From assembly GCA_963621535.1 (NCBI GenBank), contig CAVFEQ010000003.1:5926-69925 (forward strand): a DNA stretch of 64,000 nucleotides, read 5' to 3'. Position numbers and translations under genes: made by a program. Below are positions 8,786-45,100 of this stretch, piece by piece (the first letter of the stretch is position 1; the number at the start of each line of letters is the position of its first letter). The notes beneath the pieces are model-generated. The model had not been told where the DNA came from. It made no database searches and saw only the letters and a program-made list of their open reading frames with translations. Source of the DNA: Paludibacteraceae bacterium. Its GTDB lineage: Bacteria > Bacillota_I > Bacilli_A > RFN20 > CAG-826.

Positions 8786-9625
8786 CTAATTCTTTTTGAT
8801 GTTCCTGGCTTTGCTCGGGGTCATGCCCGTGGTCTTTAAGAAAAGCTTATAGAAATAGGATAGATTTGTGTAACCAACAAAGTCGCAGATTTCCTCTACG
8901 GTATAGTCCGTCCTTTGCAATAGATAATTGGCGTAGTTGATTTTCTGTTTGTTGAAGTAATCCGTCATGGTCATATGGAAGGCTTTTTTAAAAGATCGAC
9001 GGATATAATCCGGAGTAAAAGCGATATCCTTGATCAACTCGGAGCAATCGTATTTGAAGTTGTCAGAAGTCGACAAACGCGTGGCTATATTATTCAGCCA
9101 GTTGGGAATGGCCGGGCTTGATTCCTTAAGGTTATAGGACACCAGCAAGTTCACTAAATAAGTCACCAGCATTTTTGCCGCTAAAGCGTATTCTTTGGTG
9201 TTCGGGTTTAAGAATAAAGACGGAGCCAGGCTTTCAATAGAATAGATTTCCTCACTCGAAAAACGAATTTTCCGATTGTATTTATCGCTTGTTATGTCCT
9301 GGAAAAGAGTCGGCGAGAAGAAGTCGCAAACCCCTTTAAAGTAAGGCGTCGAAATCAAAATATCGCGCCTAAGAAACGACCCGTCGTCACGTTTATAGAA
9401 ACCATGGACGTCGCTAGGAATCAAAAGGCGGGCATCTCCTCTTTTCAGTTGCAGCCTTTCTCCATTGAACTCTTCGTCACCGCCGCCATCGTAAACATAA
9501 AAGATCTCAATGTAAGTGTGACGATGGAGCGGCACCCTTTCATTTTGGGCGCTCTGCGTGAATACGGGAGCCTCATTTTGAACCGTGCACTTTAAGCCCA
9601 GGACGATAACTTCGTTGTTTTCCAT
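8786..9625 (-). CDS. AraC/XylS family transcriptional regulator (cupin N-domain plus HTH)
   Basis: 279 aa. C-terminal AraC-type double HTH (ICDFVGYTNLSYFYKLFLKTTGMTPSKAR). Divergent from surface-protein gene A. Confidence 0.85.
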   Translation of the reverse strand: MENNEVIVLGLKCTVQNEAPVFTQSAQNERVPLHRHTYIEIFYVYDGGGDEEFNGERLQLKRGDARLLIPSDVHGFYKRDDGSFLRRDILISTPYFKGVCDFFSPTLFQDITSDKYNRKIRFSSEEIYSIESLAPSLFLNPNTKEYALAAKMLVTYLVNLLVSYNLKESSPAIPNWLNNIATRLSTSDNFKYDCSELIKDIAFTPDYIRRSFKKAFHMTMTDYFNKQKINYANYLLQRTDYTVEEICDFVGYTNLSYFYKLFLKTTGMTPSKARNIKKN

Positions 9626-9793
9626 GTAACTAAAGTATCACCCAAAAAGGGTTTATCCAAAGAAAATTGGTCGTTCTAGAACATTTTCGATGCGCTTTAG
9701 TTCATTTTTATGACCAATGTAAGCGCTTTATAATTTGACTAATCAATTTTATTTAGGCCGTCCTATTGGGCGGCCAGTTAAGGAGAAATGCCT

Positions 9794-11164
9794 ATGATGA
9801 GCAAGAAAGCGAGCAAGCGCCTGCTTCTGGCGGGGCTTTGCGCCGCCGGGGCCCTCAGCGCCGCCCTCGGGGCCGCGCGTTGGGCGGAGACAGTCCCCGC
9901 CTTCGCCGAATCGTCTTTGACCGAGACCACGATCTCTTTGACCGGCGTGCAGATCAGGGCAGGCCAGCTGGTCCTGCTCTCGGATTCCTACAGCAGCGTG
10001 GCTACCAACGACAACGTCGAGAACGGCGCCGCCAACAGCGACCTCTCCGGAATCAGGCTCTACACTGTCAAAGACGGGTCCTTCGTGGAGAACTCGATCA
10101 CGTGGACGGGTATCATGAACTCGATATGGGGTCAGGCCGGTGGCTTCGTCACCTTCCCCGAGTTCAACAACGGTCTCGACGGCGAGAAGGTCTACAAGGC
10201 GTTCGTCCCGGGGGGCACGAAGATCGCCGTCTCATCGACGGAGGCCTTCGTCGTCGACAAGGACTACACCTTCTTCAACAAGAACTACGGGAACACGGGG
10301 GACGCTTTCTTTTGGACCACCACCCCGTACCTGCCCTACACAAACGTCTGCCCGGAGCTCTCCCTGACCGGCGTCCAGATGCGCTGTGTCGATATTACGA
10401 ACGACAATTACAACTTCCTAGTCCTGATCTCCAGTTCGCACGAAGGGACGATCGCCAACGCGGACCTTGAGAACGGGCTGGCTTGCAGCGACCTCTCCGG
10501 GATCAGGCTCTACACCGTTGGTTCAGACGGCGAGCTCGTGGGGAACGCGATCACACCGAACCACCTCGCCCAAAACTGGTGGGGCCAGCCCGGCGCCTTC
10601 ATCGCCTTCAACGAATACAGCAAAGGGGTGGATGGGTCGAGCGTCTACAAGATCTACGTGCCGAAGGGCACGAAGCTCTTCCTCGCCGACGCGGAAAAAG
10701 GCCAGACCTACACCGTTGACAAGGACTACACCTTTTACAACCTCAATTACGGAGACGAATCGAAAAAGACCGGATCCTTCGATTGGACCAGCAACGGAGA
10801 GAGTTGGGATGTTGAGGCTTTTGTTAATAATTATATGCATCCAGAAATAGTCGATACTGAATCTGGTGCGGGCGCTTGCTTGGGAGAAGGCGGCTATTAC
10901 GCCAAAGCCAAAGCCGCTTACGACAAGCTTTCAGATGTTGCCAAGAACCTCTTCGACACCGGTTCTGCCTACGCCGCTTATAAGCAGCGTTTCGATGCTT
11001 GGGCTACCGCAAACGGGGATGTCGCCAACAAGTCTGGCGTTCTCTCTTTGCTTTCTAAAAACGGCAGCAGCGACACCCTTGGCATTACTGTTGTTGCTAT
11101 TGCCGCAGGAATTACCGCATTGGCTGCTTCCTTGCTCGTTTTTTATAAGAAAAAGCATCAATAA
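9794..11164 (+). CDS. membrane-anchored cell-surface repeat protein, paralog A
   Basis: RBS AAGGAGA sits 7 nt before ATG 9794 (MMSKKASKR...). The signal peptide is followed by two ~150-aa repeats (SLTGVQxR...SDLSGIRLYTV...QPGGF...KGTKIAVSST..VDKDYTFYN.NYG) and a C-terminal TM helix plus KKK tail. No LPXTG. About 60% GC. Confidence 0.8.
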   Translation: MMSKKASKRLLLAGLCAAGALSAALGAARWAETVPAFAESSLTETTISLTGVQIRAGQLVLLSDSYSSVATNDNVENGAANSDLSGIRLYTVKDGSFVENSITWTGIMNSIWGQAGGFVTFPEFNNGLDGEKVYKAFVPGGTKIAVSSTEAFVVDKDYTFFNKNYGNTGDAFFWTTTPYLPYTNVCPELSLTGVQMRCVDITNDNYNFLVLISSSHEGTIANADLENGLACSDLSGIRLYTVGSDGELVGNAITPNHLAQNWWGQPGAFIAFNEYSKGVDGSSVYKIYVPKGTKLFLADAEKGQTYTVDKDYTFYNLNYGDESKKTGSFDWTSNGESWDVEAFVNNYMHPEIVDTESGAGACLGEGGYYAKAKAAYDKLSDVAKNLFDTGSAYAAYKQRFDAWATANGDVANKSGVLSLLSKNGSSDTLGITVVAIAAGITALAASLLVFYKKKHQ

Positions 11165-11601: not shown

Positions 11602-13953
11602 ATGATGAGCAAGAAAGCGAGCAAGCGCGTGCTTCTGGCGGGGCTTTGCGCCGCCGGGGCCCTCGGCGCCGCCCTCGGGGCCGCGCGCTGGGCGGAAACA
11701 GTCCCCGCCTCCGCCGAATCGTCTTTGACCGAGACCGAGATCTCTTTGACCGGCATCCAGCTTAGGGCGCTGAACCTCGACAGCCCACGGTACACCTATC
11801 TGGTCCTGCTCTCGCCTTCCTACGCCGAAGTGGCCGCCAACGAAGAAGTCACGGACGGCTTAGCCAATAGCGACCTCTCCGGGATCAGGCTCTACACCGT
11901 CGACGAGGACGGGGAGCTCGCGGGGAAGACGATCACGCCCAACCACATCGAGACCACAAAATGGACACAGCCCGGCGGCTTCGTCGCCTTCAACGAGTTC
12001 AAGAATGGCCTCGACGGTGAGAAGGTCTACAAGGCGTTCATCCCAAAGGGCACGAAGATCGCCGTCTCATCGACGCAGGCCTTCGTCGTCGACAAGGACT
12101 ACACCTTCTTCAACAAGAACTACGGGAACGCGGAAGCTAAGCTTGAATCCTTTGCTTGGGCCGCCACTCCCTGCGCCCCCTACACAGACGTCTGCCCGGA
12201 GCTCTCCCTGACCGGCGTCCAGATGCGCTGCCTGGACGGCGTCACCACGAATGACTATTACAACTATCTCGTCCTGATCTCCAGTTCGCACGAAGGGATG
12301 ATCAGCGCCGAAAACCTCGAGAACGGGCTGCTCTATAGCGACCTCTCCGGGATCAGGCTCTACACCGTTGGTTCAGACGGCGAGCTCGTGGGGAACGCGA
12401 TCACACCGAACCACCTCGCCCAAAACTGGTGGGGCCAGCCCGGCGCCTTCATCGCCTTCAACGAATACAGCAAAGGGGTGGATGGGTCGAGCGTCTACAA
12501 GATCTACGTGCCGAAGGGCACGAAGCTCTTCCTCGCCGACGCGGAGAAAGGCCAAGTCTACTCCGTCGACCAGGACTACGCCTTCTACAACGTCAATTAT
12601 AGGAATGAGGAGAAAAAGGGCGAATCCTTGGATTGGTGCCCAACGCCCAGCACGCTACCTACTTTCGAGGAGACCGAGATCTCTTTGACCGGCATCCAGC
12701 TTAGGGCGCCAGGCCTCGAAAGCCCATGGTACACCTATCTGGTCCTGCTCTCGCCTTCCTACGCCGAAGTGGCCGCAAACGAAGAAGTCGCAAGCGGCTT
12801 GGCCAATAGCGACCTCTCCGGGATCAGGCTCTACACCGTCGACGAGGACGGTGAGCTCGTGGGGAACGCGATCACGCCCAACCACATCGAGACCACGAAA
12901 TGGGGCCAGCCCGGCGGCTTCATCGGTTTCGACGAGTTCAAGGACGGCCTCGACGGCGAGAAGGTCTACAAGGCGTTCATCCCAAAGGGCACGAAGATCG
13001 CCGTCTCCTCGACGCAGGCCTTCGTCATTGACAGAGACTACACCTTCTACAACACGAACTATGGGAATGAGAAAGCGAAGCTCGAGTCCTTCTCCTGGCA
13101 GGAAACATCTCTGCCCTACGAAGTGGAAAATACAGGCTCCATACACATTAGGGGCGTCACCAACCAATCCGACGGGGATAGCCGTTGGCTAATCGTCTAT
13201 CTTGACGATAAACAATATCCAGAAACCAACAAGGACGGGACTTTCTACGATGCGCTTGGGCTAAGCAATGTTCTCGACAAGATTTACCTCTATTCTTCTA
13301 GCGACATCAGCAAAGAACCCATCAAACTGAGGGATATCTTCACGGGCTTTATCACTCTTGGCCAGTTTAGTTCCAAAGACGCCTTGGGCTTCACCATTAA
13401 AAACGACGAAAGCGTGAATGGGACCAATCTTTACGCGGTGAGCATCGAAGAAGGCTGCGAGATTCCTCTTGAAGAAGACGGGGCCTACACCAAACGCACC
13501 GTTGCTTCCAAAGTCACGTTCTTGAACAACAACTATGGCAAGAGCGGCGATATCCCAGGGGAGACAGGCAAAGACAAACGCACCTACGAAGATTGGTCCA
13601 TTGATTGGACCAAGGGCGCCTTCCTGACTTACACGGTTGTTGGAGCGGATTTAAGCTTCCAAAAAGTTTGCCTGCCCGTTGGCTCGCAAATCGATGCGTC
13701 TTCCTTCGCCTTAGACGGTTACGAAGTGACGATCCAAGACAATCTTGGCTACACCTACTACGAGCAGATCATCGTTCCTGAAAGTGATGCGGTGATCACC
13801 TTGACCTATAGCAAGAAAACGATCGAGCCTGAGGAAACGCCAAAAGAATCCTCTTCTAACTGGGTTGTATGGGCTTTTGTTGGGGTCGGAGCCGCGCTCG
13901 GCGCGGGTCTAGTTGCCGTCTTGGTGGTAGTCATCAAGAAAAAGAAGGCGTAA
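11602..13953 (+). CDS. membrane-anchored cell-surface repeat protein, paralog B
   Basis: 783 aa. Signal peptide nearly identical to paralog A. Three repeats, with an A-type repeat at 11740-12200 and again at 12680-13130 flanking a B-type repeat at 12200-12670. These are followed by a unique ~250-aa lower-GC domain and a C-terminal TM plus KKKK tail. Confidence 0.8.
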   Translation: MMSKKASKRVLLAGLCAAGALGAALGAARWAETVPASAESSLTETEISLTGIQLRALNLDSPRYTYLVLLSPSYAEVAANEEVTDGLANSDLSGIRLYTVDEDGELAGKTITPNHIETTKWTQPGGFVAFNEFKNGLDGEKVYKAFIPKGTKIAVSSTQAFVVDKDYTFFNKNYGNAEAKLESFAWAATPCAPYTDVCPELSLTGVQMRCLDGVTTNDYYNYLVLISSSHEGMISAENLENGLLYSDLSGIRLYTVGSDGELVGNAITPNHLAQNWWGQPGAFIAFNEYSKGVDGSSVYKIYVPKGTKLFLADAEKGQVYSVDQDYAFYNVNYRNEEKKGESLDWCPTPSTLPTFEETEISLTGIQLRAPGLESPWYTYLVLLSPSYAEVAANEEVASGLANSDLSGIRLYTVDEDGELVGNAITPNHIETTKWGQPGGFIGFDEFKDGLDGEKVYKAFIPKGTKIAVSSTQAFVIDRDYTFYNTNYGNEKAKLESFSWQETSLPYEVENTGSIHIRGVTNQSDGDSRWLIVYLDDKQYPETNKDGTFYDALGLSNVLDKIYLYSSSDISKEPIKLRDIFTGFITLGQFSSKDALGFTIKNDESVNGTNLYAVSIEEGCEIPLEEDGAYTKRTVASKVTFLNNNYGKSGDIPGETGKDKRTYEDWSIDWTKGAFLTYTVVGADLSFQKVCLPVGSQIDASSFALDGYEVTIQDNLGYTYYEQIIVPESDAVITLTYSKKTIEPEETPKESSSNWVVWAFVGVGAALGAGLVAVLVVVIKKKKA

Positions 13954-13961
13954 GGAAAGGG

Positions 13962-16469
13962 ATGGTTATGAACATGAAAAACAACAAATTCGGTAAACGC
14001 ATTTACTTTGTCGCCCTTTTGCTCCCCTGCATCTGCGCCTGTTCCAACTCCGGAAGCAAAGGAGGGGACGAGCCGCTTGCTGTCTATGAAGGCAAGGACT
14101 TCCATTTCTCTTCCAGCAAAGGCGATGACCTTGATTGCCTTAACGAACTCAATAAGCGGATGCTCCGCTATGACGAAGACACGCGGGTCGGGGATATCGA
14201 GATTCCTGAAGGGGTCGCGTTCAACATGGGTTGGGAGACTTCAGCCCTTGTTTGGCATAACGCCACCGAGGAAGGGGTCGGCAAAGACTGCTTCTCACCC
14301 ATTTACAGCTTCCTCCAAAATGCCGGGCAAGATGATTACGGCTATGTTTACGACCTAAGCCTCTTCCGCGAATCCAGTTTTCAAGTCAACAACTCAGGGC
14401 TTTGGAACCTCCCTCAGGGATGGCCTTTCCCCTATTGGAAAACCTCCGTCGACAATCTTCTCACCGATTCCGCGGATTACGACAACGTCCATTTCACGAC
14501 CTTCGAATTTGACTCGGCCAACGAACCAACGAGCAAAAACTGGGAATGCGAGAACGGGAAGGCGGAGATTGGCTACGACGGCTATATGAACCTCTCTTTG
14601 GATTCCTCCATCGAAAAAGGGAAATCCTTGACCGTCACGAACACCCGCTTAAGCGACTACCTTCGCCTGTGCGGAGGCATCGATACCACGCACGCCTCCT
14701 TCATTGAGATCGACCTTGATTTTTCTTCCACGAATCTCGACGATTTCTATTTCCTTTGGCAGACAAAAGAGGGGGGCGACACTTGGTATCGCGCCTCAAG
14801 CAAAGAATACATGACGGTCTATAACGATTCTTTCGCTTCTTATGGCGCCCACACCTACTGGCCGATGTACCTTGATGAGAACTGGGCCGGCAAGACCGTG
14901 ACTTCCATCGGAATCGAGTTCGCCCCGAAAGAAGGCGAAGCGTTGAACCTAAGCAACGCGCGCATCAATTACATTCGCCCCGCCTACGATACCCGTCAGC
15001 CACAATTCACATTCCAGTGGCTCGACTCTTTCTATGATTACGTCGTCTACAAAAGGGATCTCGACGCTTTGACGAAGCTCATGCCCAAGGCGCGGAGGGC
15101 GCTTCTTAATCTCACCCACTGCCTCAAAGGCGAATCCGGCCTTTTGAATTTGGACTACCTTTATGGCCATAACGGCATCGGGACCACGATCAACGAGGAT
15201 GGCACGCTGGAGATTCATCCTGGGCAAGGGATCGGCTCAAGCTATTGGGACGTCCTTGCTCTCCCTACCATCAACCTTGAATCCAACGCCTACTTCTATG
15301 GCTGCGTCAAGAAGATGGCCGTCTTGGAGAAAGCCTGCGAAGATTACAACCTGGACATCGAAGGCACTTCCATCAAAAACCGTTCCCTAGGCCAGGAGAA
15401 AGTCGTCTACGACTACACTTCCAGCAAGCTCACCGAGCTCGCCTCGCTCATCAAAGCGACGTTTGAAAAAGACATAAAACCCGCGCAGCAAGCCGATGGA
15501 AGCTGGGTGAATGAGGGAGGGCTTTGGAACCCTGCGACCGGGCGTTTCGCCTTGGGGGTGAGGGAAAGCGATGGCGCTATCCTCGACCATGGCTACATCT
15601 ACTTCAATGAGCAAGCGATCTGCGCAGGCTTAGGGAGTTCCTCCCAGCGCCTTTCGACGATGAATTGGATCGACGGGAAAAGGATCGTTGAAGGAGATGA
15701 TTCCACCGGAGAGGACATCTATTTCTACGAATTCGCCCCCCGCTTCACAACCAAAGACAACAGCGAGCAAATCAATTTCACTTTGGTGAACACTTTCTTT
15801 GAAGAGGGCGGCTATTACGATGAATACGGCAGCCTTTTCTCTAGGCAAGTCCAATGCGGAGGGGCCGTCCTCTGCTGGAGCTATTATGACCTCCTCGCCC
15901 GCGCAGAGGTTCTTGGAAGAGAGAACGCCTTAAGCCGCCTTGAAGGAGTCGCCTCTTGGTATAAGAAAGTCCAAGAGGGAACAAGCGGGACAGGCACGGA
16001 TTTCTTCGCCGACTATTATGAGATCTTAGAAAGCGAGGATTGGAAAGGATATTACGTCCTGCAAAACGCGGAGGGCGGAGGCCCTGGCGCACTTGGCCTA
16101 GACGGGGAATTCCTTGAAAACAGCCTCTTCGCGCGCTCGCTTCCTAGCGCAATCCTCGGGATGGAGGTCGATTCCTTCGATCATCTAAGCTTCTGCAACG
16201 ATTCTTTAGAGGGGCTAAACGCGATCCGCGCGGACAACCTTAAATTCGGAAACGCGACTTATAGCGTGAAAATGGACGCCACCTCCTTTGAAATCTCTAA
16301 CCTCAAAGGAGGCGTGTTCGAGAAAACAAAGCTTTCCCTTCGCTTCAAAAAGCCTGGTGGCAGTTTCACCGTGGAAGTCGATGGGAAAATAAGCACGGAT
16401 TATGCAGTTGAAGGCGACTATATCTCTATGGAGCTGCCTTTAACGAATATCGTGGTAAACGTAAAATAA
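13962..16469 (+). CDS. large predicted lipoprotein of unknown family (possible extracellular glycan-active enzyme)
   Basis: Start chosen at ATG 13962, after AGGAAAGGG. The N-terminus MVMNMKNNKFGKRIYFVALLLPCICACSNSG looks like a lipoprotein signal. No family motif recognised by eye. It is the first gene of the carbohydrate operon. Confidence 0.6.
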   Translation: MVMNMKNNKFGKRIYFVALLLPCICACSNSGSKGGDEPLAVYEGKDFHFSSSKGDDLDCLNELNKRMLRYDEDTRVGDIEIPEGVAFNMGWETSALVWHNATEEGVGKDCFSPIYSFLQNAGQDDYGYVYDLSLFRESSFQVNNSGLWNLPQGWPFPYWKTSVDNLLTDSADYDNVHFTTFEFDSANEPTSKNWECENGKAEIGYDGYMNLSLDSSIEKGKSLTVTNTRLSDYLRLCGGIDTTHASFIEIDLDFSSTNLDDFYFLWQTKEGGDTWYRASSKEYMTVYNDSFASYGAHTYWPMYLDENWAGKTVTSIGIEFAPKEGEALNLSNARINYIRPAYDTRQPQFTFQWLDSFYDYVVYKRDLDALTKLMPKARRALLNLTHCLKGESGLLNLDYLYGHNGIGTTINEDGTLEIHPGQGIGSSYWDVLALPTINLESNAYFYGCVKKMAVLEKACEDYNLDIEGTSIKNRSLGQEKVVYDYTSSKLTELASLIKATFEKDIKPAQQADGSWVNEGGLWNPATGRFALGVRESDGAILDHGYIYFNEQAICAGLGSSSQRLSTMNWIDGKRIVEGDDSTGEDIYFYEFAPRFTTKDNSEQINFTLVNTFFEEGGYYDEYGSLFSRQVQCGGAVLCWSYYDLLARAEVLGRENALSRLEGVASWYKKVQEGTSGTGTDFFADYYEILESEDWKGYYVLQNAEGGGPGALGLDGEFLENSLFARSLPSAILGMEVDSFDHLSFCNDSLEGLNAIRADNLKFGNATYSVKMDATSFEISNLKGGVFEKTKLSLRFKKPGGSFTVEVDGKISTDYAVEGDYISMELPLTNIVVNVK

Positions 16470-16485: not shown

Positions 16486-17850
16486 ATGAACAAACAAAGC
16501 AAAATCATTCTTCTTAGCTCTACTCTTTTGGCAACGGCCCTTACCGTTGCTAGCTGCGGAGGAGATCAGAATACCGGCGATAGCGCCAACCCGGCGGTGA
16601 ACCTCAAAATCGCCGTCACCAGCGATAAGACCGAGACCAGCATCGCAGAAGCCCTCATCAAGGGCTTCAACCAGACCGAAGGCAACAAGAACGTCAAAAT
16701 CTCCGTCGTGAAAATCACCCAGGGCTATGACAGCTACATCCAGAAGAACTGGGGCAAGTCCACGATGGCCGATCTCATCTCCGTTTACGACTACAACGCC
16801 GAATACTGGACTTCAATGAACCTCTTCAAGCCCCTTTCCACCTACATGGAAAGAGATGGCGTTAACGAGGAAGATTACGTCTCCTCCATGTTCAACTTAG
16901 GGAAATCCGGGACCGATGACACTTATTATTGGCTCCCTCGCGATTACAACAAAGTCGTCGTTTGCTACAACACCGAGATCTTTGAGGCGGCCGGGATCAG
17001 CAAGCCTAGCGACAACTGGACGATGGAGGATTTCGAGCAGACCTGCAAGACGCTTTTGGAGAAGAGCGAAGAAATCAAGAAGGTCACCGGCAAGTACGAC
17101 TTCTGGCCGGCGGAGATGAACCTCAAATGGACCGCGGTTTATTATCCCTACATCAAATCCTATGGCGGCGGCTTCCTTGCGGACGATGGGACTTGCTTCA
17201 AAAACCCGGACATCGTGAAATCCTCCCTTCTCAAACTTTTGAAATACGCAGACCCGACCGACAGCGCGAACTATCCCGGTCTTGGCTATAGCAACCCCAT
17301 CGGGCAAGCCGACGATCAGGCCTGCTTCGTCAATAAAAAAGCGGCGATGATTTTCACGGTGCGCCCGAACATCCAGAGCTTTGCAAAGAATCTGAATAAC
17401 AACATCGACTTCGTTTCCTTGCCCTCAATCACCGATAACGACGGAAAGACATCGTATATCGGCTCGGGCTGCTCAGGGTATACCATCACAACCAACTGCA
17501 GCGACGATAAAGTCGAGGCCGCTTGGCGTTTCTTGAAATACATCGTTTCGAAGGAAGGCCAGGAAGTTCTTGGCAAAACCGGCAGCGGCATCCCCGTGCT
17601 TTCCTCTCTTCTAAACGATTCCTCTTCCGCATGGAAAAACTTCATCTCGAAGGATCTCAATCACGACGCCTTCACCAAGTTCCCTGAGCGCGACCTCTCC
17701 ATGAATTACGTTCATGGCTTCAAAGCCAACAAGCAGCTCACCATTTATAAGGAATTCAAAGACAGTCTGATCTTCTCCATGTACAACAGCGAAGACCGCG
17801 ACGAGGAATTCGCTGCCTTCAAAGCCAAAATTGACGCGCTGATTGCCTAA
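16486..17850 (+). CDS. ABC transporter extracellular solute-binding lipoprotein (CUT1 sugar family)
   Basis: 454 aa. Lipobox LTVASCGG. Length and composition typical of a sugar-binding protein. Followed by MalF/MalG-like permeases. Confidence 0.85.
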   Translation: MNKQSKIILLSSTLLATALTVASCGGDQNTGDSANPAVNLKIAVTSDKTETSIAEALIKGFNQTEGNKNVKISVVKITQGYDSYIQKNWGKSTMADLISVYDYNAEYWTSMNLFKPLSTYMERDGVNEEDYVSSMFNLGKSGTDDTYYWLPRDYNKVVVCYNTEIFEAAGISKPSDNWTMEDFEQTCKTLLEKSEEIKKVTGKYDFWPAEMNLKWTAVYYPYIKSYGGGFLADDGTCFKNPDIVKSSLLKLLKYADPTDSANYPGLGYSNPIGQADDQACFVNKKAAMIFTVRPNIQSFAKNLNNNIDFVSLPSITDNDGKTSYIGSGCSGYTITTNCSDDKVEAAWRFLKYIVSKEGQEVLGKTGSGIPVLSSLLNDSSSAWKNFISKDLNHDAFTKFPERDLSMNYVHGFKANKQLTIYKEFKDSLIFSMYNSEDRDEEFAAFKAKIDALIA

Positions 17851-17903
17851 AAAGCCTCACCTTCGAAGGCATTCTTCGAAGGTTTTGCCGTGGAAGGAGG
17901 GTT

Positions 17904-18815
17904 ATGAAAGCCTCTACGAAGAAAATAATAAAAAACAACGTTACAGGATACTTGCTTCTGCTGCCGTTTTTAGTTGGGCTAATCGGCTTCACGGCCTATC
18001 CCTTGCTTTTGGCGTTATGGCAGAGCTTTTTCAAAGACTATAGCCCCGTGACGGGATATGACTTCGCCGACTTCGGATTCGAGAATTACATCAACGCATT
18101 TACGAGCCAAAGCGTGCAGCGTTCCATTTGTCTCACTCTTGTCTATGCGGCGATTACGATCCCCTTTGGGCTCGTCGTCTCCTTCCTCCTCGCCTATTTG
18201 CTCAGTTTGCCAATCAAAGGCACTAAAATATTCCGCGTTTTGGTCTACTTGCCAGCGTTGATCCCTAGCATCGTCTCCGCTTCTATCTACAAGTACATGT
18301 TCGGTCCTGACGAATTCGGGCTGATCAATCAGCTTCTTATTGGCCTAGGAAGAGAGCCGAGCAAGCTTTTGGAATCGCCTGAGCAAAGCATCGCGGTGCT
18401 GAGCTTATTCTTAACCGGCATCTTCGGCTACGGCTGCAGCTCGCCGATGTGGATCGCAGGGTTCAACAGCGTTCCAACTGACGTCTACGAAGCGGCGTTC
18501 GTCGATGGATCTTCCAAACCGAGAACCTTTTTCAAAATCACCATCCCCCTCATGGGAAGATTCATTTTCTTCCAACTGCTTGGCTCCCTCATCGGGACTT
18601 TGCAGATCGGGGAATCCGTCCTCATGCTTTCAAGCAGAGGAGGCTTCGGAGAGAACCTCAACTTCTATGGCTTGATGATCTATAACCAAACCACAGACGG
18701 CATCGGGAACTATGGCTTTGCAAGCGCTTTGTCCTATCTCCTCTTCATTGTGATCGCCTTGCTTTCCATCGCGACGTTCCAAGCGAATAAAAAAACCTAC
18801 ATGGAGGGCATTTGA
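17904..18815 (+). CDS. ABC sugar transporter permease (MalF/UgpA-like)
   Basis: 303 aa. Six TMs and an EAA-like loop region (EAAFVDGSS). Confidence 0.85.
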   Translation: MKASTKKIIKNNVTGYLLLLPFLVGLIGFTAYPLLLALWQSFFKDYSPVTGYDFADFGFENYINAFTSQSVQRSICLTLVYAAITIPFGLVVSFLLAYLLSLPIKGTKIFRVLVYLPALIPSIVSASIYKYMFGPDEFGLINQLLIGLGREPSKLLESPEQSIAVLSLFLTGIFGYGCSSPMWIAGFNSVPTDVYEAAFVDGSSKPRTFFKITIPLMGRFIFFQLLGSLIGTLQIGESVLMLSSRGGFGENLNFYGLMIYNQTTDGIGNYGFASALSYLLFIVIALLSIATFQANKKTYMEGI

Positions 18816-18816
18816 G

Positions 18817-19665
18817 ATGGAGCATTTCAAAATGAAATTTTGGGAGAAGGCCATCATTTACGTTATTTTGACCTTCTTCTCCCTCTTGGCTATCGTCCCC
18901 ACCTTTGTTCTGGTTTCTAGAAGTTTTTTCTCCCTTGATGAGATCACTAGCCTTGGGGCGGGGGTCTTCCCTCATAGTCCCACTCTCGACGCCTATGTGA
19001 CGGCCTTTACCGACGAGGGTTTCTTGACGTCTTTAAAAAACACTCTTCTTACCTGTCTATGCGCGGTCATCGGGGTGCCTTTAACCGCCTTCATGGCCGC
19101 TTACGCCTTCACGCGCATCAAATTCTTCGGCCGGAGATTTTGGTTCCTCTTGGGGCTTGGCACCATCATGATCCCAAGCATCTTGCTCTTGATTCCCGTC
19201 TATTCGATCTTCGTGGATATGGGATGGACCAACACCCTGCTGCCCCTTACCGTGACTTATTTCTTCGGCGGAGGCATCATGAACATCTTCCTCATCATGC
19301 AGTTCATACGCGGATTGCCAAAAGACATGTATGAGGCCGCCGAAATCGACGGCGCAGGGACGTTGCGTCAGATGTTCCAGCTTACCTTGCCTTTGGTGAA
19401 GCCTGTGGTTGCTTATGCTGCCGTCACCGCCTTTATCGGCGCCTGGAATGACGTCATGCGCCCATTGATGTACAACGATTTATCCGAATATTACACGGTC
19501 AACCAATACATCTACATCACTTATCTGCAGCAAACCGCGACGATGGATGCGCTGCCAAACGTCCAAATGGCCCTTGGGGTCATCCTCATGATTCCGATGC
19601 TCATCATTTTCATCGTCTTCCAAAAGCAACTGATTGAGGGCATCCGCCTCTCGGGAGAGAAATAA
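18817..19665 (+). CDS. ABC sugar transporter permease (MalG/UgpE-like)
   Basis: 282 aa. EAA motif (YEAAEIDGAGTLRQMFQLTLPL). 2-nt gap to the previous gene. Confidence 0.85.
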   Translation: MEHFKMKFWEKAIIYVILTFFSLLAIVPTFVLVSRSFFSLDEITSLGAGVFPHSPTLDAYVTAFTDEGFLTSLKNTLLTCLCAVIGVPLTAFMAAYAFTRIKFFGRRFWFLLGLGTIMIPSILLLIPVYSIFVDMGWTNTLLPLTVTYFFGGGIMNIFLIMQFIRGLPKDMYEAAEIDGAGTLRQMFQLTLPLVKPVVAYAAVTAFIGAWNDVMRPLMYNDLSEYYTVNQYIYITYLQQTATMDALPNVQMALGVILMIPMLIIFIVFQKQLIEGIRLSGEK

Positions 19666-19667: not shown

Positions 19668-20951
19668 ATGAAAAAGAAAATCGTCGTTGTTGGCTGCGGG
19701 GACCGCGCCACCGTATATTGTCAAGAAGGGGTGAATAACCTTAAAGGAATGGAAGTTGTCGCCTGCGTCGATCCGAATGAGGAAAGGCTAAGGTTCATGC
19801 ACGAACATTTCGCTGTGCCTTCTTCGATGTGTTTCCATAGCATCGAAGAAGTGCTGAAGCTAGGAAAAATCGGGGATGCGGTGATTAATGGCACGATGGA
19901 TACCTTGCACCTGCAGACCGCACTGCCTTTCTTAAAGCAAGGCTACCACATGCTTTTGGAGAAGCCTCTTACCAACAACAAAGAGGATCTTCTTTTGCTT
20001 AAAAAGGTGGCTGAAGAAAATAACGTCAAACTGATGACCTGCCACGTCCTCCGTTACGCGCCCTTCTATCGCAAAATCAAGGAAATGATCCTCAATGGAG
20101 AAATCGGCAGCATCCAAAGCATCGCCACTTCCGAACGCGTCGGCGCCTATCATTCCTCGGTGAGCTATCTCCGAGGCAAGTGGAGCAAGCAAAGCGAATG
20201 CGGCTCCTCCTTGCTTTTAGCAAAATGCTGCCACGATCTCGATTTGCTTTGCTGGCTCAATAACAGCACCAAGCCCGTTGAGGTCTATAGCAACGGAGGG
20301 AGAACCTATTTCACAAAGGAAAACGCCCCAAAGGGCAGCGGAAACCGCTGCCTTGTGGACTGCCCAAAGGAAATCAGAGACAAGTGCATCTACGAAGCGG
20401 AAGCGATGTATATCAAAAACACCGTTTTGCCTTGGTATCCTTGGCAGTGCACAGGGAAAAATTACGAGGACGTCACCGAGGAAGAGAAATACGAATCCTT
20501 GCGGACGAACAATCCGCACGGACGTTGCATCTTCAAATGCGACGGCGATTTGCTTGACCACCAAAACGTCGTGGTGAAATTCGCAAACGGAAGCACCGCG
20601 AGCCATCTTCTGGTTTTAGGCGCGATGAAGCCGACGCGGACGATCTTCATCACCGGGACGGAAGGCGAAATCGAAGGCGATCCTAGCGGGGAACTCATTC
20701 TCCGCAAATTCGACAAGAATAGCGATTTCTTCACCGAGACTAAGGTGAGCTTCGAAGACAAACAAGGCGAGACCGGCGGGCATTATGGGGGCGACAGGGG
20801 CCTTATCGCCGACTTCCTGAACGTTCTTTCAGGAGTTGTCCCGTCAATCTCTTGCACCGCGATTGAAGATTCCATCAATGGGCATTGCCTGGTCTATGGG
20901 GCCGACCAATCCATAGCCAGCCTCAAGCCTGAGAACATCGAAACCGAATGA
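19668..20951 (+). CDS. Gfo/Idh/MocA family NAD(P)-dependent oxidoreductase
   Basis: 427 aa. N-terminal Rossmann KIVVVGCGDRA and a central EKP motif (LLEKPLTNN). Cys-rich insert CLVDCPKEIRDKCIYEAE. Overlaps the next gene by 4 nt. Confidence 0.8.
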   Translation: MKKKIVVVGCGDRATVYCQEGVNNLKGMEVVACVDPNEERLRFMHEHFAVPSSMCFHSIEEVLKLGKIGDAVINGTMDTLHLQTALPFLKQGYHMLLEKPLTNNKEDLLLLKKVAEENNVKLMTCHVLRYAPFYRKIKEMILNGEIGSIQSIATSERVGAYHSSVSYLRGKWSKQSECGSSLLLAKCCHDLDLLCWLNNSTKPVEVYSNGGRTYFTKENAPKGSGNRCLVDCPKEIRDKCIYEAEAMYIKNTVLPWYPWQCTGKNYEDVTEEEKYESLRTNNPHGRCIFKCDGDLLDHQNVVVKFANGSTASHLLVLGAMKPTRTIFITGTEGEIEGDPSGELILRKFDKNSDFFTETKVSFEDKQGETGGHYGGDRGLIADFLNVLSGVVPSISCTAIEDSINGHCLVYGADQSIASLKPENIETE

Positions 20952-23140
20952 GTAAAATGAGCAAAGGAAGAATCACGATTCCCACCGATTCCACTTACGT
21001 CGAGGGGACGAAAAAATATATCGAGCTTTGGGGCGCCGACGCGGTGAGAGATTGTGACGGGGTCAGTTTGCCTAAAGACGTGAAGCAATTTGGCACAGAC
21101 GTCTATAAGGCTTATTTCATCGTAAGGGAAGACCACGATTATGCCTTGAAACATAAGGAATATTGGCAGAACGTCGCTTTGATGAGCCAAAGGAAGATTG
21201 CTTATGGAAACGAGCTCGTGATCGATTTGCTGGAGAACACGTTCAAAGACGCCCTCGAGCCCAACGAGACGGATTACCGCAAATGGTGGCAGGTCATCGA
21301 CCGAACGACGGGCCGCATTCACGAAGACTACGACTACCTAGGCTCAGGGAAAGTCCGCATCAATAGCTGCCTCCCCTACCACGAATACACGGTGAACTTC
21401 TTTGCCAGAAACACCTGGGACCCCGTGCAAATCTATAACTATCACGTGAACAATTGGACTTGCCCGAAAGACATCGATCTTGATCCGGTATATCCAGAAG
21501 CGCTTCAGCATATGCTTGAGAGAATGGAACTATGGCTGAAGGCGAATCCCGATGTAACGGTGGTCCGTTTCACTACTTTTTTCTATAACTTCTTCATTGT
21601 GAACGTCACCGGTACCAAGCAACGCATTTGGGACTGGCACTGCTATGCGATGAGCGCCTCCCCCGCGATGTTCGAATTGTTCAAAAAAGAAAAAGGCGTT
21701 GAAATGAGCCTGGAGGATCTAATCGGCGAGGGCTACTATTCCAACCGCTTCGTTATCCCCGGCAAGAAGCAGTTGGCTTACGAAGACTTCGTGGAAGAAA
21801 AATGCGCCGCTTGGGCAAAGCGATTCGTCGATCTGTGCCATAAATACAGCAAGAAAGCCTTGATGTTCGATGGGGATCATCGCGTTGGCGTGGAACCTTA
21901 TTCTCCTTATTTCCCCTCGATTGGGCTAGACGGGGTGGTCGGGGCTCCAAGCGGAGCCATCTACATCAGCCAAGTGGCGAATATCAAAGGAGTGAAATTC
22001 ACCGAAGGTAGGCTGAATCCTTATTTCTTCCCGAATGAATGCCCTAGCGACGAGAAAGGGAAGCAAATCCTTCTTTCTTGCTGGAACAACATGCGGAGAG
22101 GGCTGCTGAAGAAATCCATTGATCGCATTGGTTTTGGAGGATACCTCAAGCAAATCGAGAACTACCCTTTGTTGACTGCGGCAATTAAAGACGTATGCGA
22201 CGAATTCAGGGGCATCGCGGATGCTCTTGGCCATTCCTCTTGCTCTAGCAAAGGGAGGATCGCCGTGCTCAGTTACAGGGGCAGGCGCGATTCTTGGATG
22301 ATGAATGGGACGTTCGTCGACGATGCGAGGCAAGGGGGCTGCTACTACCATTCCCTTTTCGACGCTTTGGCGGTTTTGCCTTTTGAGGTCGAGTTCATTT
22401 CCTTTGAAGAAGCTTCCAAAACGGATTTAAGCACATACGACTGCCTTCTTTCTTGCGGGGTGCCGAATACGAGCTTCGCCGGAGGCAAGGCATGGGAGAA
22501 CCCTGAGCTTGTTTCCAATATCAGGAGATACGTGCACGAAGGGGGCGCCTTCTTTGGGGTCGGGGAGCCGACCGCCAGCCAACATCAGGGAAGGTTTTTC
22601 CAGTTAAGCGACGTGCTTGGCGTAGAGAAGGAATGCGAGTTCACCCATTTTGAGAAACGCAACCCATTCAAAACGTTAGAAAATCACTGGATTAAGGAGG
22701 ACGTGGATATGTCTTTGGTTGGTTATAACCGTTTCCAAAGAAACGTTTACCCCCTCACCGCGACGGTTTTGGCCAACGAATTCGATTGGGAATATCCAGA
22801 AGGCCAGCAAAATGCCGCGAACGTGCATTTTGCGATCAATGAGTATGGAAAGGGGAGAAGCGTCTATCTTTCTGGAATCACCTGTAACGACGAGACCATT
22901 CGTCTCTTATATCGCGCTTTCCTTTGGGCGATGAAGAAAGAAGACGAGACGAAGCGGCTTTATGCGTTAGCGAGCTCCGTGGATGTTTTCTATTATGAAG
23001 AGAAGCGGATGTACGCTTTGTACAACGATTCCGAAAAAGAAGTCGCGACAAGTTACTATGACCTGCAAGGAAATTTGAAGAACGTTTTCTTGAAAGGAAA
23101 AGAGATTGTCTGGCTGGACGAAAAGGGGCTGAAATTATGA
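20948..23140 (+). CDS. GH112 beta-galactoside phosphorylase (lacto-N-biose/galacto-N-biose or Gal-beta1,4-L-Rha phosphorylase family)
   Basis: 730 aa. Blocks recalled from Bifidobacterium LnpA are conserved: ELWGADAVRDCDG, WQVIDRTTGRI, HEYTVNFFA, WDPVQIYNY, VVRFTTFFYNF, GRFFQLSDVLGVEKE. Confidence 0.8.
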   Translation: MSKMSKGRITIPTDSTYVEGTKKYIELWGADAVRDCDGVSLPKDVKQFGTDVYKAYFIVREDHDYALKHKEYWQNVALMSQRKIAYGNELVIDLLENTFKDALEPNETDYRKWWQVIDRTTGRIHEDYDYLGSGKVRINSCLPYHEYTVNFFARNTWDPVQIYNYHVNNWTCPKDIDLDPVYPEALQHMLERMELWLKANPDVTVVRFTTFFYNFFIVNVTGTKQRIWDWHCYAMSASPAMFELFKKEKGVEMSLEDLIGEGYYSNRFVIPGKKQLAYEDFVEEKCAAWAKRFVDLCHKYSKKALMFDGDHRVGVEPYSPYFPSIGLDGVVGAPSGAIYISQVANIKGVKFTEGRLNPYFFPNECPSDEKGKQILLSCWNNMRRGLLKKSIDRIGFGGYLKQIENYPLLTAAIKDVCDEFRGIADALGHSSCSSKGRIAVLSYRGRRDSWMMNGTFVDDARQGGCYYHSLFDALAVLPFEVEFISFEEASKTDLSTYDCLLSCGVPNTSFAGGKAWENPELVSNIRRYVHEGGAFFGVGEPTASQHQGRFFQLSDVLGVEKECEFTHFEKRNPFKTLENHWIKEDVDMSLVGYNRFQRNVYPLTATVLANEFDWEYPEGQQNAANVHFAINEYGKGRSVYLSGITCNDETIRLLYRAFLWAMKKEDETKRLYALASSVDVFYYEEKRMYALYNDSEKEVATSYYDLQGNLKNVFLKGKEIVWLDEKGLKL

Positions 23141-24744
23141 GAAAGTGCAATTACACAAAGGTCATTGATAGTCATTTGGTGAAGGACGTGGATAGATTAT
23201 CCGCGAATTTTACCTCCGGAGAGCATATTTTCGTCGCCCCGGTTTGCTCCATCCAAAAGGGCGGTTATTTGATCCTAGATTTCGGCAAGGAGATTTGCGG
23301 AAGGGTCCATGTGGTCTTCGGCTTCTCGGAAAATTCAAAAATCAGAATCAGGACCGGGGAGAGCGTCGATGAAGCCTGCGCAGAGCTCAATGAGAAGAAC
23401 GCCGGGAATCACCATTCGTTGAGGGATGCTGTTTATCCCGTGGTCTTTTGGAGCGATTTCTCTACAAGCGAGACCGGCTTCCGTTTCGTGCGGATCGATG
23501 TTCTAGGCGAAGAGAAGGTGGATATAACCTCGATCTACGCCGAAGAAAGTGAGAACGGGCTTACCAAAAGGGGGTCGTTCCTTTCAAGCGATAAAAGGTT
23601 GAACGACATCTATGAGGTGGCTTCTAGGACCATTGAACTTTGCGTTCGTCCCGAAGCGATTTGGGACGGCGTGAAAAGGGACCGCGTGGCCTGGATTGGC
23701 GATTTCTATCCCGAACTGTTAAGCGCATATCTCATCTATGGGAACATCCCTCAGATGGAGAGCATGCTCGATTACGTTTCTTCCTTCGAAGGAAAATGGG
23801 TCAATAGCATCCCCGCCTATTCCGCTTGGTGGATCGTTTGCTTTGAGAAGTATTACCAGCTAAGTGGAAATGAAGCCTATCTGCAAAAGATGCTTCATTA
23901 TTTAAAAGACATCGTAAAGGAATTCTCCAAGATTATTTTCCCTGGCGGGAAGGTGTCTTTCGCCAATTCCACGCTTGGCTTCTTTGATGGGAACGAGCTT
24001 TTCCTTGATTGGCCAACCCACACGACCCCTGACGCGGAAATTGGCTGGCGTTACCTTCTTCTTTACGCGATGAAACGGGCGAGCGTTCTTCTTAGCTCCT
24101 TAGGCGAGGACGCGTCTTTAGCGGATAACATCATCAAGAACCTTAATGAATATTCCTATCCAGCGTCTTCCTTTAAGCAAGTGACCGCTTTAGGAGTGCT
24201 TGCTGGGAAAATCGACCCCAAGGAGGCCGCGCCTTTATTGAAAGAGGGCGGCGCGAAGGGCATGACCTGCTTCCTTAGCTTCGCTATTGTTGAAGCGCTA
24301 AGCTTGGCCAATGAAGGCGACGAGGCGCTTAATCTTATTAAAGAATACTATGGGGCGATGCTGGATTTGGGCGCGACAACATTTTGGGAAGATTTCGATG
24401 TCGATTGGTTAAATGACCATCCAGATGGCGTTTCCGCGCTACCGAACGCTAAGACCAAAAACATCCATGCGGATTATGGCAAATTTTGTTATTTAGGGCT
24501 GCGCCATAGCCTGTGCCACGGCTGGTCGACGGGCTTCCTTGATTTTTACGCATCCTATCTTCTTGGGGTCGTTGCTATAGAACCTGGCTACAAATCGATT
24601 AAAGTCGAACCGCATTTATGCGGACTGAGTTTCGTTGAGGGCACCATACCGACCCCTTATGGTGACATATGGGTCCATCACGAGAATAAAAAAGGCCAGA
24701 TTGAGACCTGCTTGAAGTGCCCGGAAGGCGTTGTGTTAAAATGA
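23137..24744 (+). CDS. six-hairpin glycoside hydrolase, alpha-L-rhamnosidase-like (GH78 catalytic and C-terminal domains only)
   Basis: 535 aa. DGVKRDRVAWIGD and SLCHGWSTGF motifs resemble the GH78 (alpha/alpha)6 catalytic domain. The usual N-terminal beta-sandwich domains are absent. 4-nt overlap on both sides. Confidence 0.55.
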   Translation: MRKCNYTKVIDSHLVKDVDRLSANFTSGEHIFVAPVCSIQKGGYLILDFGKEICGRVHVVFGFSENSKIRIRTGESVDEACAELNEKNAGNHHSLRDAVYPVVFWSDFSTSETGFRFVRIDVLGEEKVDITSIYAEESENGLTKRGSFLSSDKRLNDIYEVASRTIELCVRPEAIWDGVKRDRVAWIGDFYPELLSAYLIYGNIPQMESMLDYVSSFEGKWVNSIPAYSAWWIVCFEKYYQLSGNEAYLQKMLHYLKDIVKEFSKIIFPGGKVSFANSTLGFFDGNELFLDWPTHTTPDAEIGWRYLLLYAMKRASVLLSSLGEDASLADNIIKNLNEYSYPASSFKQVTALGVLAGKIDPKEAAPLLKEGGAKGMTCFLSFAIVEALSLANEGDEALNLIKEYYGAMLDLGATTFWEDFDVDWLNDHPDGVSALPNAKTKNIHADYGKFCYLGLRHSLCHGWSTGFLDFYASYLLGVVAIEPGYKSIKVEPHLCGLSFVEGTIPTPYGDIWVHHENKKGQIETCLKCPEGVVLK

Positions 24745-25658
24745 GAAAATTCATCGTCGACACCGACATCGGAGCCGATTGCGACGACATGGTCGCCCTT
24801 GCTTATTTATTGGGGAAAAGTTCAAAAAAGGAATGCGAGCTGCTTGCGATTACTTTAAGCACCGGGCGCGAGTTCGCCCCTAATTGCGCGCTTTCCCTTT
24901 TGAAAGAACGGGGGTTCACCTCGATTCCTGTTGGACAATATAAAGGGAATCCCTTGCCTTGTGACCGTTTTGACCATTACGCGAAGGCGTTATCAAAAAA
25001 GAATCCCATCAAAGTCGAAAACGCAACGACGCTCATGCGCTCCGTTTTATCTAGCAACGAGAAATGCGACATCATTTGCATCGGACCGCTCTGCAACATC
25101 GCCTCTTTTTTGAAAAGTCAGGCGGATGACATCTCTTCCTTGGACGGAATCAGCTTAGCAAAAGAAAAAATCGGGACCCTTTACCTTATGGGCGGCGCGT
25201 TCGATTTCGGGTCAGGGATTCCATTCCCGGAATGGAACATCGAGCAAGACATCGATAGCGCCCGTTTCGTTTTTGCCTCCTTTCCTCGCCCCATCAAAGC
25301 CATCCCTTTTGAAACGGGTGCAATCGTCAAAACGAGCATTGATTCTACCGAAGGAATTGTCCGCTCATCCATGGAAGCCTTCTTCGAAAGCATTCAAAAC
25401 CCTTCTTTGAAGAGCCGACCAAGTTGGGATCCTCTCACAGCGATGGTTTCACTTAACGAGGAAGGATTTCGTTTTTCCTCTACTGGAAAAATCTCAATTT
25501 CCCCTAAAGGCATCAGTGAGTTCCATGCTTGCGAAGAAGGGAACGCCTCTTATCTTCTGCTGAGCAACGATTTCCCAAAAATCGAAGCAAAACTGAACGC
25601 TTTTTTAAGCGAAATGCACACCTACAAAGGAGATACCGAAAATGAGAAAGATTTATGA
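24741..25658 (+). CDS. inosine-uridine-preferring nucleoside hydrolase family protein
   Basis: The start overlaps the upstream stop (ATGA). The N-terminal fingerprint FIVDTDIGADCDDMVAL matches the DxDxxxDD motif. Confidence 0.8.
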   Translation: MRKFIVDTDIGADCDDMVALAYLLGKSSKKECELLAITLSTGREFAPNCALSLLKERGFTSIPVGQYKGNPLPCDRFDHYAKALSKKNPIKVENATTLMRSVLSSNEKCDIICIGPLCNIASFLKSQADDISSLDGISLAKEKIGTLYLMGGAFDFGSGIPFPEWNIEQDIDSARFVFASFPRPIKAIPFETGAIVKTSIDSTEGIVRSSMEAFFESIQNPSLKSRPSWDPLTAMVSLNEEGFRFSSTGKISISPKGISEFHACEEGNASYLLLSNDFPKIEAKLNAFLSEMHTYKGDTENEKDL

Positions 25659-42360: not shown

Positions 42361-42374
42361 AGGAAAAATCGCTT

Positions 42375-43742: not shown

Positions 43743-43759
43743 TCAGCGAAGCAAAGGCC

Positions 43760-43860: not shown

Positions 43861-43871
43861 GAATTAACGAT

Positions 43872-44996: not shown

Positions 44997-45025
44997 GCCT
45001 AGAAAAGGCTTTAAAAACACGGAGA

Positions 45026-45053: not shown

Positions 45054-45100
45054 TTACATAGTAATAAAATATTCCCGCTGGGATTTTCAGCGGATTTGCT

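Follow-up and report, generated by a model that had tools for sequence, protein, structure and literature searches.

A 64,000-nucleotide stretch of DNA from a Paludibacteraceae bacterium (contig CAVFEQ010000003.1, positions 5,926 to 69,925; hereafter the window) carries a gene for an 835-amino-acid lipoprotein that belongs to a large family without a name. The organism is a Gram-positive gut bacterium, and the protein is probably a lipid-anchored surface glycoside hydrolase (GH) of the six-hairpin class, which would hydrolyze a complex glycan to an oligosaccharide for the adjacent ATP-binding cassette (ABC) importer. The analysis establishes that the gene is real and that its product has a signal peptide with a lipobox. 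It further establishes how large the family is, to which fold class it belongs, which residues it conserves, the synteny of the locus and the fusions of the family domain to other modules.

The open reading frame (ORF) of the lipoprotein translates without internal stops. Three in-frame ATG codons, at 13962, 13968 and 13974, fall within 12 nucleotides of each other and lie 3' of a Shine-Dalgarno-like stretch, GGAAAGGG. The alignments of homologues begin at M5, the third ATG, and thus the true start may be up to four codons later. A longer ORF from the ATG at 13869 runs into the 3' end of the upstream gene, and its use as the real start is not credible. The N-terminus reads MKNNKFGKRIYFVALLLPCICAC and continues with SNSG. 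It consists of a K/R-rich segment, a hydrophobic segment and then the sequence I-C-A-C27, which gives it the characteristics of a bacterial lipoprotein (an Lgt and LspA substrate) with Cys27 as the predicted lipidated residue. This cysteine is kept in at least 90% of close homologues. Judged by eye, nearly all of the first 70 listed members of about 800 amino acids carry a signal peptide that ends in a cysteine at approximately positions 20-28, and a strict lipobox pattern matches 71 of 128 family members of 700-900 amino acids. The lipoprotein-type signal noted in a preliminary description of this DNA is therefore borne out. That description also pointed to a body rich in aromatic residues and glycine, as expected for a carbohydrate-active protein. 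The composition is indeed 13.3% aromatic and 9.2% glycine, but the aromatic content is similar to that of the neighboring GH112 protein (14.1%) and so is neither distinctive nor informative.

The lipoprotein has no match in Pfam or NCBIfam and no sequence match in the Protein Data Bank (PDB) at E<=1. It nevertheless has many relatives. A first search yielded 64 homologues at E<=5e-37 with 26-99% identity over the aligned region, and a profile search found 752 representative clusters (50% identity) at E<=1e-3, of which 370 are at E<=1e-30. These numbers far exceed chance, and the gene is real. Relatives occur in Firmicutes of the gut and rumen and also in Planctomycetota, Armatimonadota, Verrucomicrobiota and Hydrogenedentota. 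The closest (36-65% identity) are from species-level metagenome-assembled genomes of uncultured gut and rumen Clostridia and Bacilli, paralogues at 27-31% identity are found in Clostridia including the cultured Pumilibacter intestinalis CLA-AA-M10, and the relatives in the four other phyla are 24-30% identical over residues ~150-800. Up to three copies are seen in single genomes. The only name given to homologues from the first search, where there is any, is "hypothetical protein", and ten sampled clusters carry no other name. A second profile search, of a 5.8-billion-protein set, returned essentially the same set with one new fragment and no bridging sequences or names. A tblastn search of plasmids gave no match to the lipoprotein, and our literature search found no description of the family, of an endo-rhamnosidase or of a matching operon.

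Structure prediction places the protein in a known fold class. The full-length AlphaFold2 model, built from a 34-sequence alignment, has a predicted local distance difference test (pLDDT) score of 87.7 and a predicted template modeling (pTM) score of 0.90. Residues 1-34 form a disordered lipoprotein tether in the model, followed by four folded regions (Table 1), the first of which is partly helical over residues ~48-190. A Foldseek search of the PDB with this model gave 64 matches at E<=1e-3, with template modeling (TM) scores of ~0.3 and ~10% identity. The matches listed are six-hairpin glycosidases and phosphorylases (GH78, GH94, GH116, GH65, GH95, GH121 and GH100) with one exception, a phage baseplate protein whose match is to the beta-sandwich in the N-terminal part. 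Residues 342-835 were also modeled separately to remove the effects of domain orientation (pLDDT 94.8, pTM 0.94). The nearest structures to this half are GH78 rhamnosidases: 3cih at E=4.2e-9, 8iwf with a TMq of 0.54 and a root-mean-square deviation of 6.1 A over 513 columns, 8hmm at 0.52 and 2okx at 0.47. Following these are GH95-like, GH127, GH65, GH94, GH63 and GH121 structures (6m5a for GH121, TMq 0.46) and 7vma, an archaeal amylo-alpha-1,6-glucosidase (0.43). Judged by the predicted fold, the lipoprotein has a remote place in the six-hairpin (alpha/alpha)6 glycosidase superfamily and does not represent a new fold. The preliminary description had suggested that a fold comparison be made, and this comparison found a glycosidase-like fold and no match to a non-enzymatic binding-protein family.

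The exception in the list, 8gtc_M (the 'Megatron' baseplate of a marine siphophage), aligns with residues 194-341 at a sequence E-value of 0.14 and a fold E-value of 2.2e-4 (rank 43). The likeness is probably that of a shared carbohydrate-binding jelly-roll.

Conserved residues are concentrated in the helical domain and point to a live active site. When ~200 family members were aligned to the family hidden Markov model (HMM), overall identity was only ~25%, yet about a dozen polar residues are near-invariant. D430 (204/204), D542 (201/201), N549 (201/201), W569 (202/202) and G633/G634 (200/200) are fully invariant. Near-invariant residues include E456 (203/204), R345 (200/201), R378 (201/203), R528 (200/201), Y587 (201/202), D643 (198/200), E716 (194/199) and E719 (191/199), with H403 at 193/204 and D714 at 179/199. 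R574, within the six-hairpin domain, is likewise near-invariant. Six-hairpin GHs share a topology that places the base close to the barrel's C-terminal end and the acid either early in the barrel (GH78) or in a mid-barrel insertion (GH63, GH37 and GH94) (PMC7263609). The GH121 enzyme HypBA2 has three essential carboxylates at positions 383, 515 and 713 (PMC7263609), and the order and spacing of D430, D542 and E716-719 resemble those of E383, D515 and E713. By this analogy we propose that E716 or E719 is the base-side residue and that D430 or D542 is the acid.

Among the families that share its fold, the lipoprotein does not qualify as a member of GH78, GH65 or GH94. A profile of 41 divergent family members weakly matches GH94 (1v7v, E=6.8e-6), GH65 (3wiq, 5e-5) and GH78 (3cih, 4.5e-3) in the PDB, with matches confined to one helix region and the junction between barrel and sandwich, and a profile of close homologues found only noise. 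For GH94, two short local stretches align to 1v7v and leave the catalytic region uncovered. The Pfam domain GH65C (PF03633) is present in 24 of the 41 relatives, whereas the lipoprotein itself has neither this domain nor Glyco_hydro_65m. The GH121 structure 6m5a has no sequence match to the lipoprotein in PDB sequence and profile searches. None of the Pfam domains of GH78 (Bac_rhamnosid6H, Bac_rhamnosid_N and Bac_rhamnosid_C) is found in the lipoprotein or the 41 relatives. The signature positions of the GH78 enzyme SaRha78A (D630..R634.E636..W640, TTMWE895RW and H916), which we verified on an alignment of a Pumilibacter GH78 protein to SaRha78A, are absent as well; in SaRha78A, E636 is the general acid and E895 is the general base (PMC7263609). 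An alignment of the family profile with the GH78-like protein coded in the window gave nothing significant. The preliminary description was correct that GH2, GH13, GH20, GH101 and GH129 are absent, at the sensitivity of Pfam. Its statement that the protein has no recognizable family holds for Pfam, NCBIfam and PDB sequences, but not for the GH65C domain of its relatives or for its remote membership among six-hairpin GHs.

The location of the gene also fits a role in glycan uptake. The lipoprotein gene follows a gene for a 783-amino-acid repeat protein after 8 nucleotides and precedes the gene for a solute-binding protein (SBP) by 16 nucleotides. This arrangement, with two permease genes beyond, agrees with the position described in the preliminary description, between surface repeat proteins and importer genes. 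However, the lipoprotein gene does not lead the operon as proposed there. Upstream of the 783-amino-acid repeat protein gene, a strong terminator lies at 11184-11202 and a promoter-like site at 11445-11473. The repeat protein gene is therefore probably co-transcribed with the lipoprotein gene, which takes second place in the operon. From 11602, the transcription unit most likely extends to the end of the ribokinase gene at 26514. The further proposal that a surface enzyme feeds the transporter gains support from the lipoprotein status, the synteny with ABC genes and the near-invariant carboxylates.

This synteny is evident from a tblastn comparison of the window proteins with 85 fetched loci. 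In 35-37 loci the SBP gene and both permease genes adjoin the family gene. With a single exception these loci are from Firmicutes, and they constitute nearly every Firmicutes locus with enough flanking sequence. A GFO-type oxidoreductase gene is present in 21 loci. Its product is 59-80% identical within the close subfamily, compared to 36-65% for the lipoprotein, which suggests a strongly constrained and probably unusual step of sugar oxidation or reduction. A gene resembling that of the 783-amino-acid repeat protein is located immediately upstream of the family gene in 12 loci, the GH78-like gene is found in nine and GH112 in four. Tallies of Pfam domains among Firmicutes neighbors add bona fide GH78 proteins in five further loci and a Y_phosphatase3 protein in six. 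In P. intestinalis, the locus (L033) codes for a 943-amino-acid protein with no assigned family, the family member, an SBP, two permeases, a GH78 protein (E=6e-92), a 927-amino-acid protein and a homologue of the AraC-type regulator. Outside of Firmicutes, the neighbor tallies show no ABC neighbor and no dominant partner.

Two other features of these loci were observed. The Y_phosphatase3 protein is encoded downstream of the ABC genes (L023:17809-19908 and five other Firmicutes loci). In addition, large neighbors of 693-943 amino acids have no Pfam match (L023:15695-17776, L021:15941-18355, L019:15641-17908 and L033:1902-4733), and these could likewise be carbohydrate-active enzymes that lack a classification, or binding proteins, within the same systems.

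Fusions link the family to the repeat proteins. In many members the family domain forms the C-terminal part of a protein of 1,500-2,600 amino acids, which can carry SLH and CBM9 modules, a dockerin directly N-terminal to the family domain, or DUF642-like or HpiC1-like modules. The SLH, CBM9 and dockerin modules also fit a surface location for the family. In several fusions, the N-terminal part is homologous to the repeat proteins encoded upstream of the lipoprotein (the 783-amino-acid protein matches P0067 at E=3e-59 and P0065 at E=6e-20). Such Rosetta-stone fusions suggest that the repeat protein and the lipoprotein act together at the surface, and the 783-amino-acid protein is a probable glycan-binding partner. 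Two fusions carry phosphatase modules, an alkaline phosphatase in P0108 and a metallophosphoesterase in P0116. As phosphatase associations recur, the substrates of some family members may be phosphorylated glycans.

We infer hydrolytic activity for the lipoprotein, an endo-acting or oligosaccharide-releasing mode, and the nature of its substrate, as follows. The co-transcribed repeat protein would hold the polymer at the surface alongside the lipoprotein. The latter would hydrolyze a complex glycan, most likely one containing alpha-L-rhamnose and maybe anionic, to a defined oligosaccharide. Catalysis would employ the near-invariant carboxylates of the barrel, by analogy with the topology of GH78, GH63, GH37 and GH121. 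The SBP would capture the oligosaccharide, the two permeases would import it, and the GH78-like enzyme, the GH112 phosphorylase and the GFO-type oxidoreductase would dismantle it in the cytoplasm. The recurrent rhamnosidase partners suggest that the substrate contains rhamnose, and the many near-invariant arginines, together with the phosphatase and sulfatase associations, hint that it is anionic. We consider a rhamnose-containing glycan only a tentative choice of substrate. A more ambitious proposal, which is a serious possibility rather than our expectation, is that the lipoprotein is the founding member of a new GH family of undescribed specificity. It would release oligosaccharides from a rhamnose-containing and possibly anionic or phosphorylated glycan, such as rhamnogalacturonan-I (RG-I) or a bacterial cell-wall rhamnopolysaccharide. 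With the repeat-domain capture protein it would form a two-component machine, the Gram-positive counterpart of Sus-like capture, coupled to a cytoplasmic GFO step that is conserved to an unusual degree.

Several observations somewhat dampen our confidence in a surface hydrolase that releases rhamnose-containing oligosaccharides. The substrate inference rests on neighbors that are present in only about one third of the loci, and contexts outside of Firmicutes are a mixture of sulfatases, ADP-ribosylglycohydrolases, phosphoesterases and aminotransferases. Phosphatase fusions and neighbors hint at a different, phosphorylated substrate. The likeness to all solved GHs is remote (TM scores of ~0.3-0.54, 10-13% identity). 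An hhalign comparison with the GH78 profile is non-significant (probability 28%), and one with the GH65 protein YcjT of Escherichia coli covers the junction only (residues 727-781, probability 72%), so that residue roles cannot be mapped from either family. The lipoprotein lacks both the acid motif (D..P.RDER.GW) and the base motif (TT.WE.W) of GH78, and the window's own GH78-like protein keeps the base motif. Finally, the status as a new GH family was judged by Pfam, NCBIfam and the PDB, and CAZy may already classify the family. An equivalence of D430 with D746 of SaRha78A was also considered, and was rejected as unreliable given the non-significant hhalign result.

Some of these points bear on other explanations. 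The lipoprotein might be a divergent exo-alpha-L-rhamnosidase, a very remote GH78 enzyme that trims terminal rhamnose caps at the surface and does not release oligosaccharides. GH78 enzymes are the nearest structural neighbors of the catalytic half and rhamnosidase genes recur in the operons. However, the lack of GH78 motifs, of GH78 Pfam domains and of a significant hhalign match speaks against this explanation, and the cytoplasmic GH78 and GH78-like enzymes of the same operons imply that rhamnose is still attached at import. In addition, the usual cargo of importers with CUT1-type SBPs is oligosaccharides. We therefore consider exo-acting removal of rhamnose to be unlikely. The absence of the catalytic motifs of GH78, the nearest family, would also be expected of a decayed glycosidase scaffold that serves as a non-catalytic surface glycan-binding protein and passes substrate to the SBP, as in the Sus-like role in Bacteroides. 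The family has no known activity, and the gene lies between that of a putative binding protein and that of the SBP. Nevertheless, carboxylates, arginines, a histidine and tryptophans are near-invariant in ~200 members from several phyla, in a pattern like that of a catalytic pocket. Binding is already the role of the separate repeat protein, which elsewhere occurs fused to the family domain, and fusions to CBM9, SLH and dockerin modules are typical of enzymes. A purely binding function thus seems quite improbable.

The protein might instead be carbohydrate-active but not a simple hydrolase, for example a polysaccharide lyase, a transglycosylase, or an enzyme whose substrates are glycans with phosphodiester linkages or sulfate groups, for instance bacterial cell-wall rhamnopolysaccharides or polymers that resemble teichoic acids. 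The near-invariant R345, R378, R528, R574, R594, R647 and R659 suggest an anionic substrate. The phosphatase fusions in P0108 and P0116, the Y_phosphatase3 neighbors, the sulfatase and ADP-ribosylglycohydrolase neighbors outside of Firmicutes, and the nucleoside-hydrolase-like and ribokinase genes at the end of the operon are also in line with such chemistry. However, apart from the baseplate protein, the listed significant fold matches are GHs or phosphorylases, with no polysaccharide lyase among the top 50, and the phosphatase and sulfatase associations are limited to few loci. Phosphorylases are normally cytoplasmic enzymes and this protein is a lipoprotein, and so its identification as a glycoside phosphorylase was rejected on the basis of its surface location. 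We judge chemistry of this kind to be unlikely, and a surface hydrolase that supplies the importer remains our preferred reading.

Table 1. Positions of the lipoprotein gene, its predicted regions and the surrounding genes in the window.
Feature	Position	Strand	Evidence or remark
Six-hairpin glycosidase-like lipoprotein gene	13962..16469	+	835 amino acids; member of an unnamed family
Signal peptide and lipobox (I-C-A-C27)	13962..14042	+	Sequence; C27 conservation; family-wide pattern
N-terminal, partly helical region (~residues 35-190)	14065..14531	+	Motifs W91, G127 and Q-G-W-P-F-P (152-157) family-wide
CBM-like beta-sandwich (~residues 194-341)	14541..14984	+	Secondary structure of model; near-invariant Y-D343-T-R345 at end
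Predicted catalytic domain, helical six-hairpin (alpha/alpha)6 type (~residues 347-731)	15000..16154	+	Fold and conservation
C-terminal GH65C-like beta-sandwich (~residues 735-835)	16164..16466	+	Models; PF03633 in relatives; HMM and hhalign junction matches
AraC/ChbR-type transcriptional regulator, divergent from the locus	8786..9625	-	NCBIfam ChbR/RhaR/AraC matches
458-amino-acid repeat surface protein	9788..11164	+	Signal peptide; ~170-amino-acid repeats; C-terminal transmembrane helix and KKKHQ tail
783-amino-acid repeat surface protein	11602..13953	+	Signal peptide; ~4 repeats of ~170 amino acids; C-terminal transmembrane helix and KKKKA tail
CUT1-type solute-binding protein	16486..17850	+	Pfam SBP_bac_1 / SBP_bac_8
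Two ABC permeases	17904..19665 (17904-18815, 18817-19665)	+	Pfam BPD_transp_1; synteny
Cytoplasmic GFO/IDH/MocA sugar oxidoreductase	19668..20951	+	Library matches; synteny
GH112 beta-galactoside phosphorylase	20948..23140	+	NCBIfam equivalog match
Cytoplasmic GH78-like protein, 535 amino acids	23137..24744	+	GH78 base motif TTFWEDF and SLCHG retained
Nucleoside-hydrolase-like protein and ribokinase, 3' end of operon	24717..26514	+	In a minority of related loci

Other genes of the locus provide additional context. The AraC/ChbR-type protein probably regulates the glycan locus, and its homologue is kept upstream in two related loci, L008 (60% identity) and L009 (56%). The 458-amino-acid repeat protein is a paralogue of the 783-amino-acid protein and has no Pfam family, and the terminator upstream of the latter gene lies directly 3' of its own. 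It has no homology to the product of the 454-amino-acid upstream gene in locus L004. The 783-amino-acid protein has a weak Pfam match to HA70_C. The GH112 protein scores 618.7 bits against a cut-off of 560.3 for the NCBIfam equivalog of 1,3-beta-galactosyl-N-acetylhexosamine phosphorylase. GH112 also includes Gal-beta1,4-Rha phosphorylases that are linked to RG-I (PMC8950772), and the window protein may have this specificity. The nearest solved relatives of the oxidoreductase are generic (1,5-anhydrofructose reductase and glycoside 3-dehydrogenases), and a comparison of the SBP and the oxidoreductase with solved structures gave no specific clue to a ligand. A GH109-like role for the oxidoreductase was considered and is unsupported, as no GH109 entry is apparent among its PDB matches.

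A perfect palindromic hairpin of 10 base pairs (ACCTTCGAAG..CTTCGAAGGT) is located at 17859-17883, between the genes of the SBP and the first permease. Its role could be attenuation within the operon or RNA stabilization, which would favor expression of the SBP over the permeases. The nucleoside-hydrolase-like and ribokinase genes recur with the operon in L008, L011 and L013. Ribose or riboside metabolism is an odd companion to a galactose and rhamnose glycan locus, and ADP-ribosylglycohydrolase neighbors are found in three non-Firmicutes loci.

The remainder of the window holds housekeeping genes, and no genes for rhamnose or uronate catabolism were found there. A replication-origin gene cluster (dnaA, dnaN, recF and gyrB) occupies 42288-48433, which places the glycan locus ~15-30 kb from the origin. 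The 918-amino-acid ORF after gyrB (48433-51189) is probably gyrA. The window further contains mfd, pth, a tilS-like gene and, on the minus strand at 39665-41428, a YidC-like gene. Another group of genes (28566-31458) codes for an HddA-like kinase, a fused nucleotidyltransferase and GmhB-like phosphatase, and a GmhA-like isomerase. This trio resembles a pathway for nucleotide-activated heptose and is probably unrelated to the catabolic operon. It suggests that the surface of this Gram-positive organism bears a glycan with heptose.

As a candidate for a new GH family the lipoprotein is credible; its fold and the logic of its operon are known ones, and conceptually it brings no surprise. Despite its large size and its link to importers in Firmicutes, the family escapes annotation by Pfam and NCBIfam. 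A large share of carbohydrate degradation by uncultured gut Clostridia cannot be read from their genomes because key enzymes have no family assignment. An assigned activity would define a probable new CAZy family and would explain a recurrent type of operon, including its very conserved oxidoreductase and large unannotated neighbors. It would also show which dietary, host or microbial glycan feeds these poorly known gut bacteria. The function of the family is directly testable in P. intestinalis CLA-AA-M10, the cultured carrier of a paralogue.

Among known systems, the nearest solved structures to the catalytic half are the GH78 rhamnosidases BT1001 (3CIH), Aspergillus niger Rha-2 (8IWF) and SaRha78A (3W5N). 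Both they and the lipoprotein have N-terminal beta-sandwich domains, an (alpha/alpha)6 barrel and a C-terminal beta-sandwich. However, identity is only 12% with TM scores of ~0.45-0.54, and the lipoprotein has a different N-terminal architecture and a lipid anchor. The GH65 and GH94 phosphorylases (kojibiose phosphorylase, 3WIQ, and chitobiose phosphorylase, 1V7V) have the same overall domain order and weak sequence links to the lipoprotein, whose surface location argues against phosphorolysis of that type. A looser analogue, with an importer, a GFO-type dehydrogenase and a six-hairpin enzyme combined in one operon, is the ycj cluster of E. coli, which according to RefSeq annotation codes for a CUT1-type importer (YcjNOP), two glycoside 3-dehydrogenases of the GFO/IDH/MocA type (YcjS and YcjQ) and the GH65 protein YcjT. 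The window oxidoreductase is 23% identical to YcjS over 151 residues. In contrast to the window locus, the ycj cluster codes for neither a surface enzyme nor a repeat protein, and YcjT is a phosphorylase of the cytoplasm.

The best functional analogue is the system of the GH121 beta-L-arabinobiosidase HypBA2 in Bifidobacterium longum (PMC7263609). HypBA2 is also extracellular, its (alpha/alpha)6 barrel is flanked by one beta-sandwich on the N-terminal side and another on the C-terminal side, and it releases a defined oligosaccharide for a dedicated ABC importer that is encoded beside it (PMC7263609). Three enzymes and the transporter are described as one system for degradation and import (PMC7263609). 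HypBA2 differs from the lipoprotein in that there is no detectable sequence relationship and its anchoring is not of the lipoprotein type. HypBA2 is a retaining enzyme (PMC7263609).

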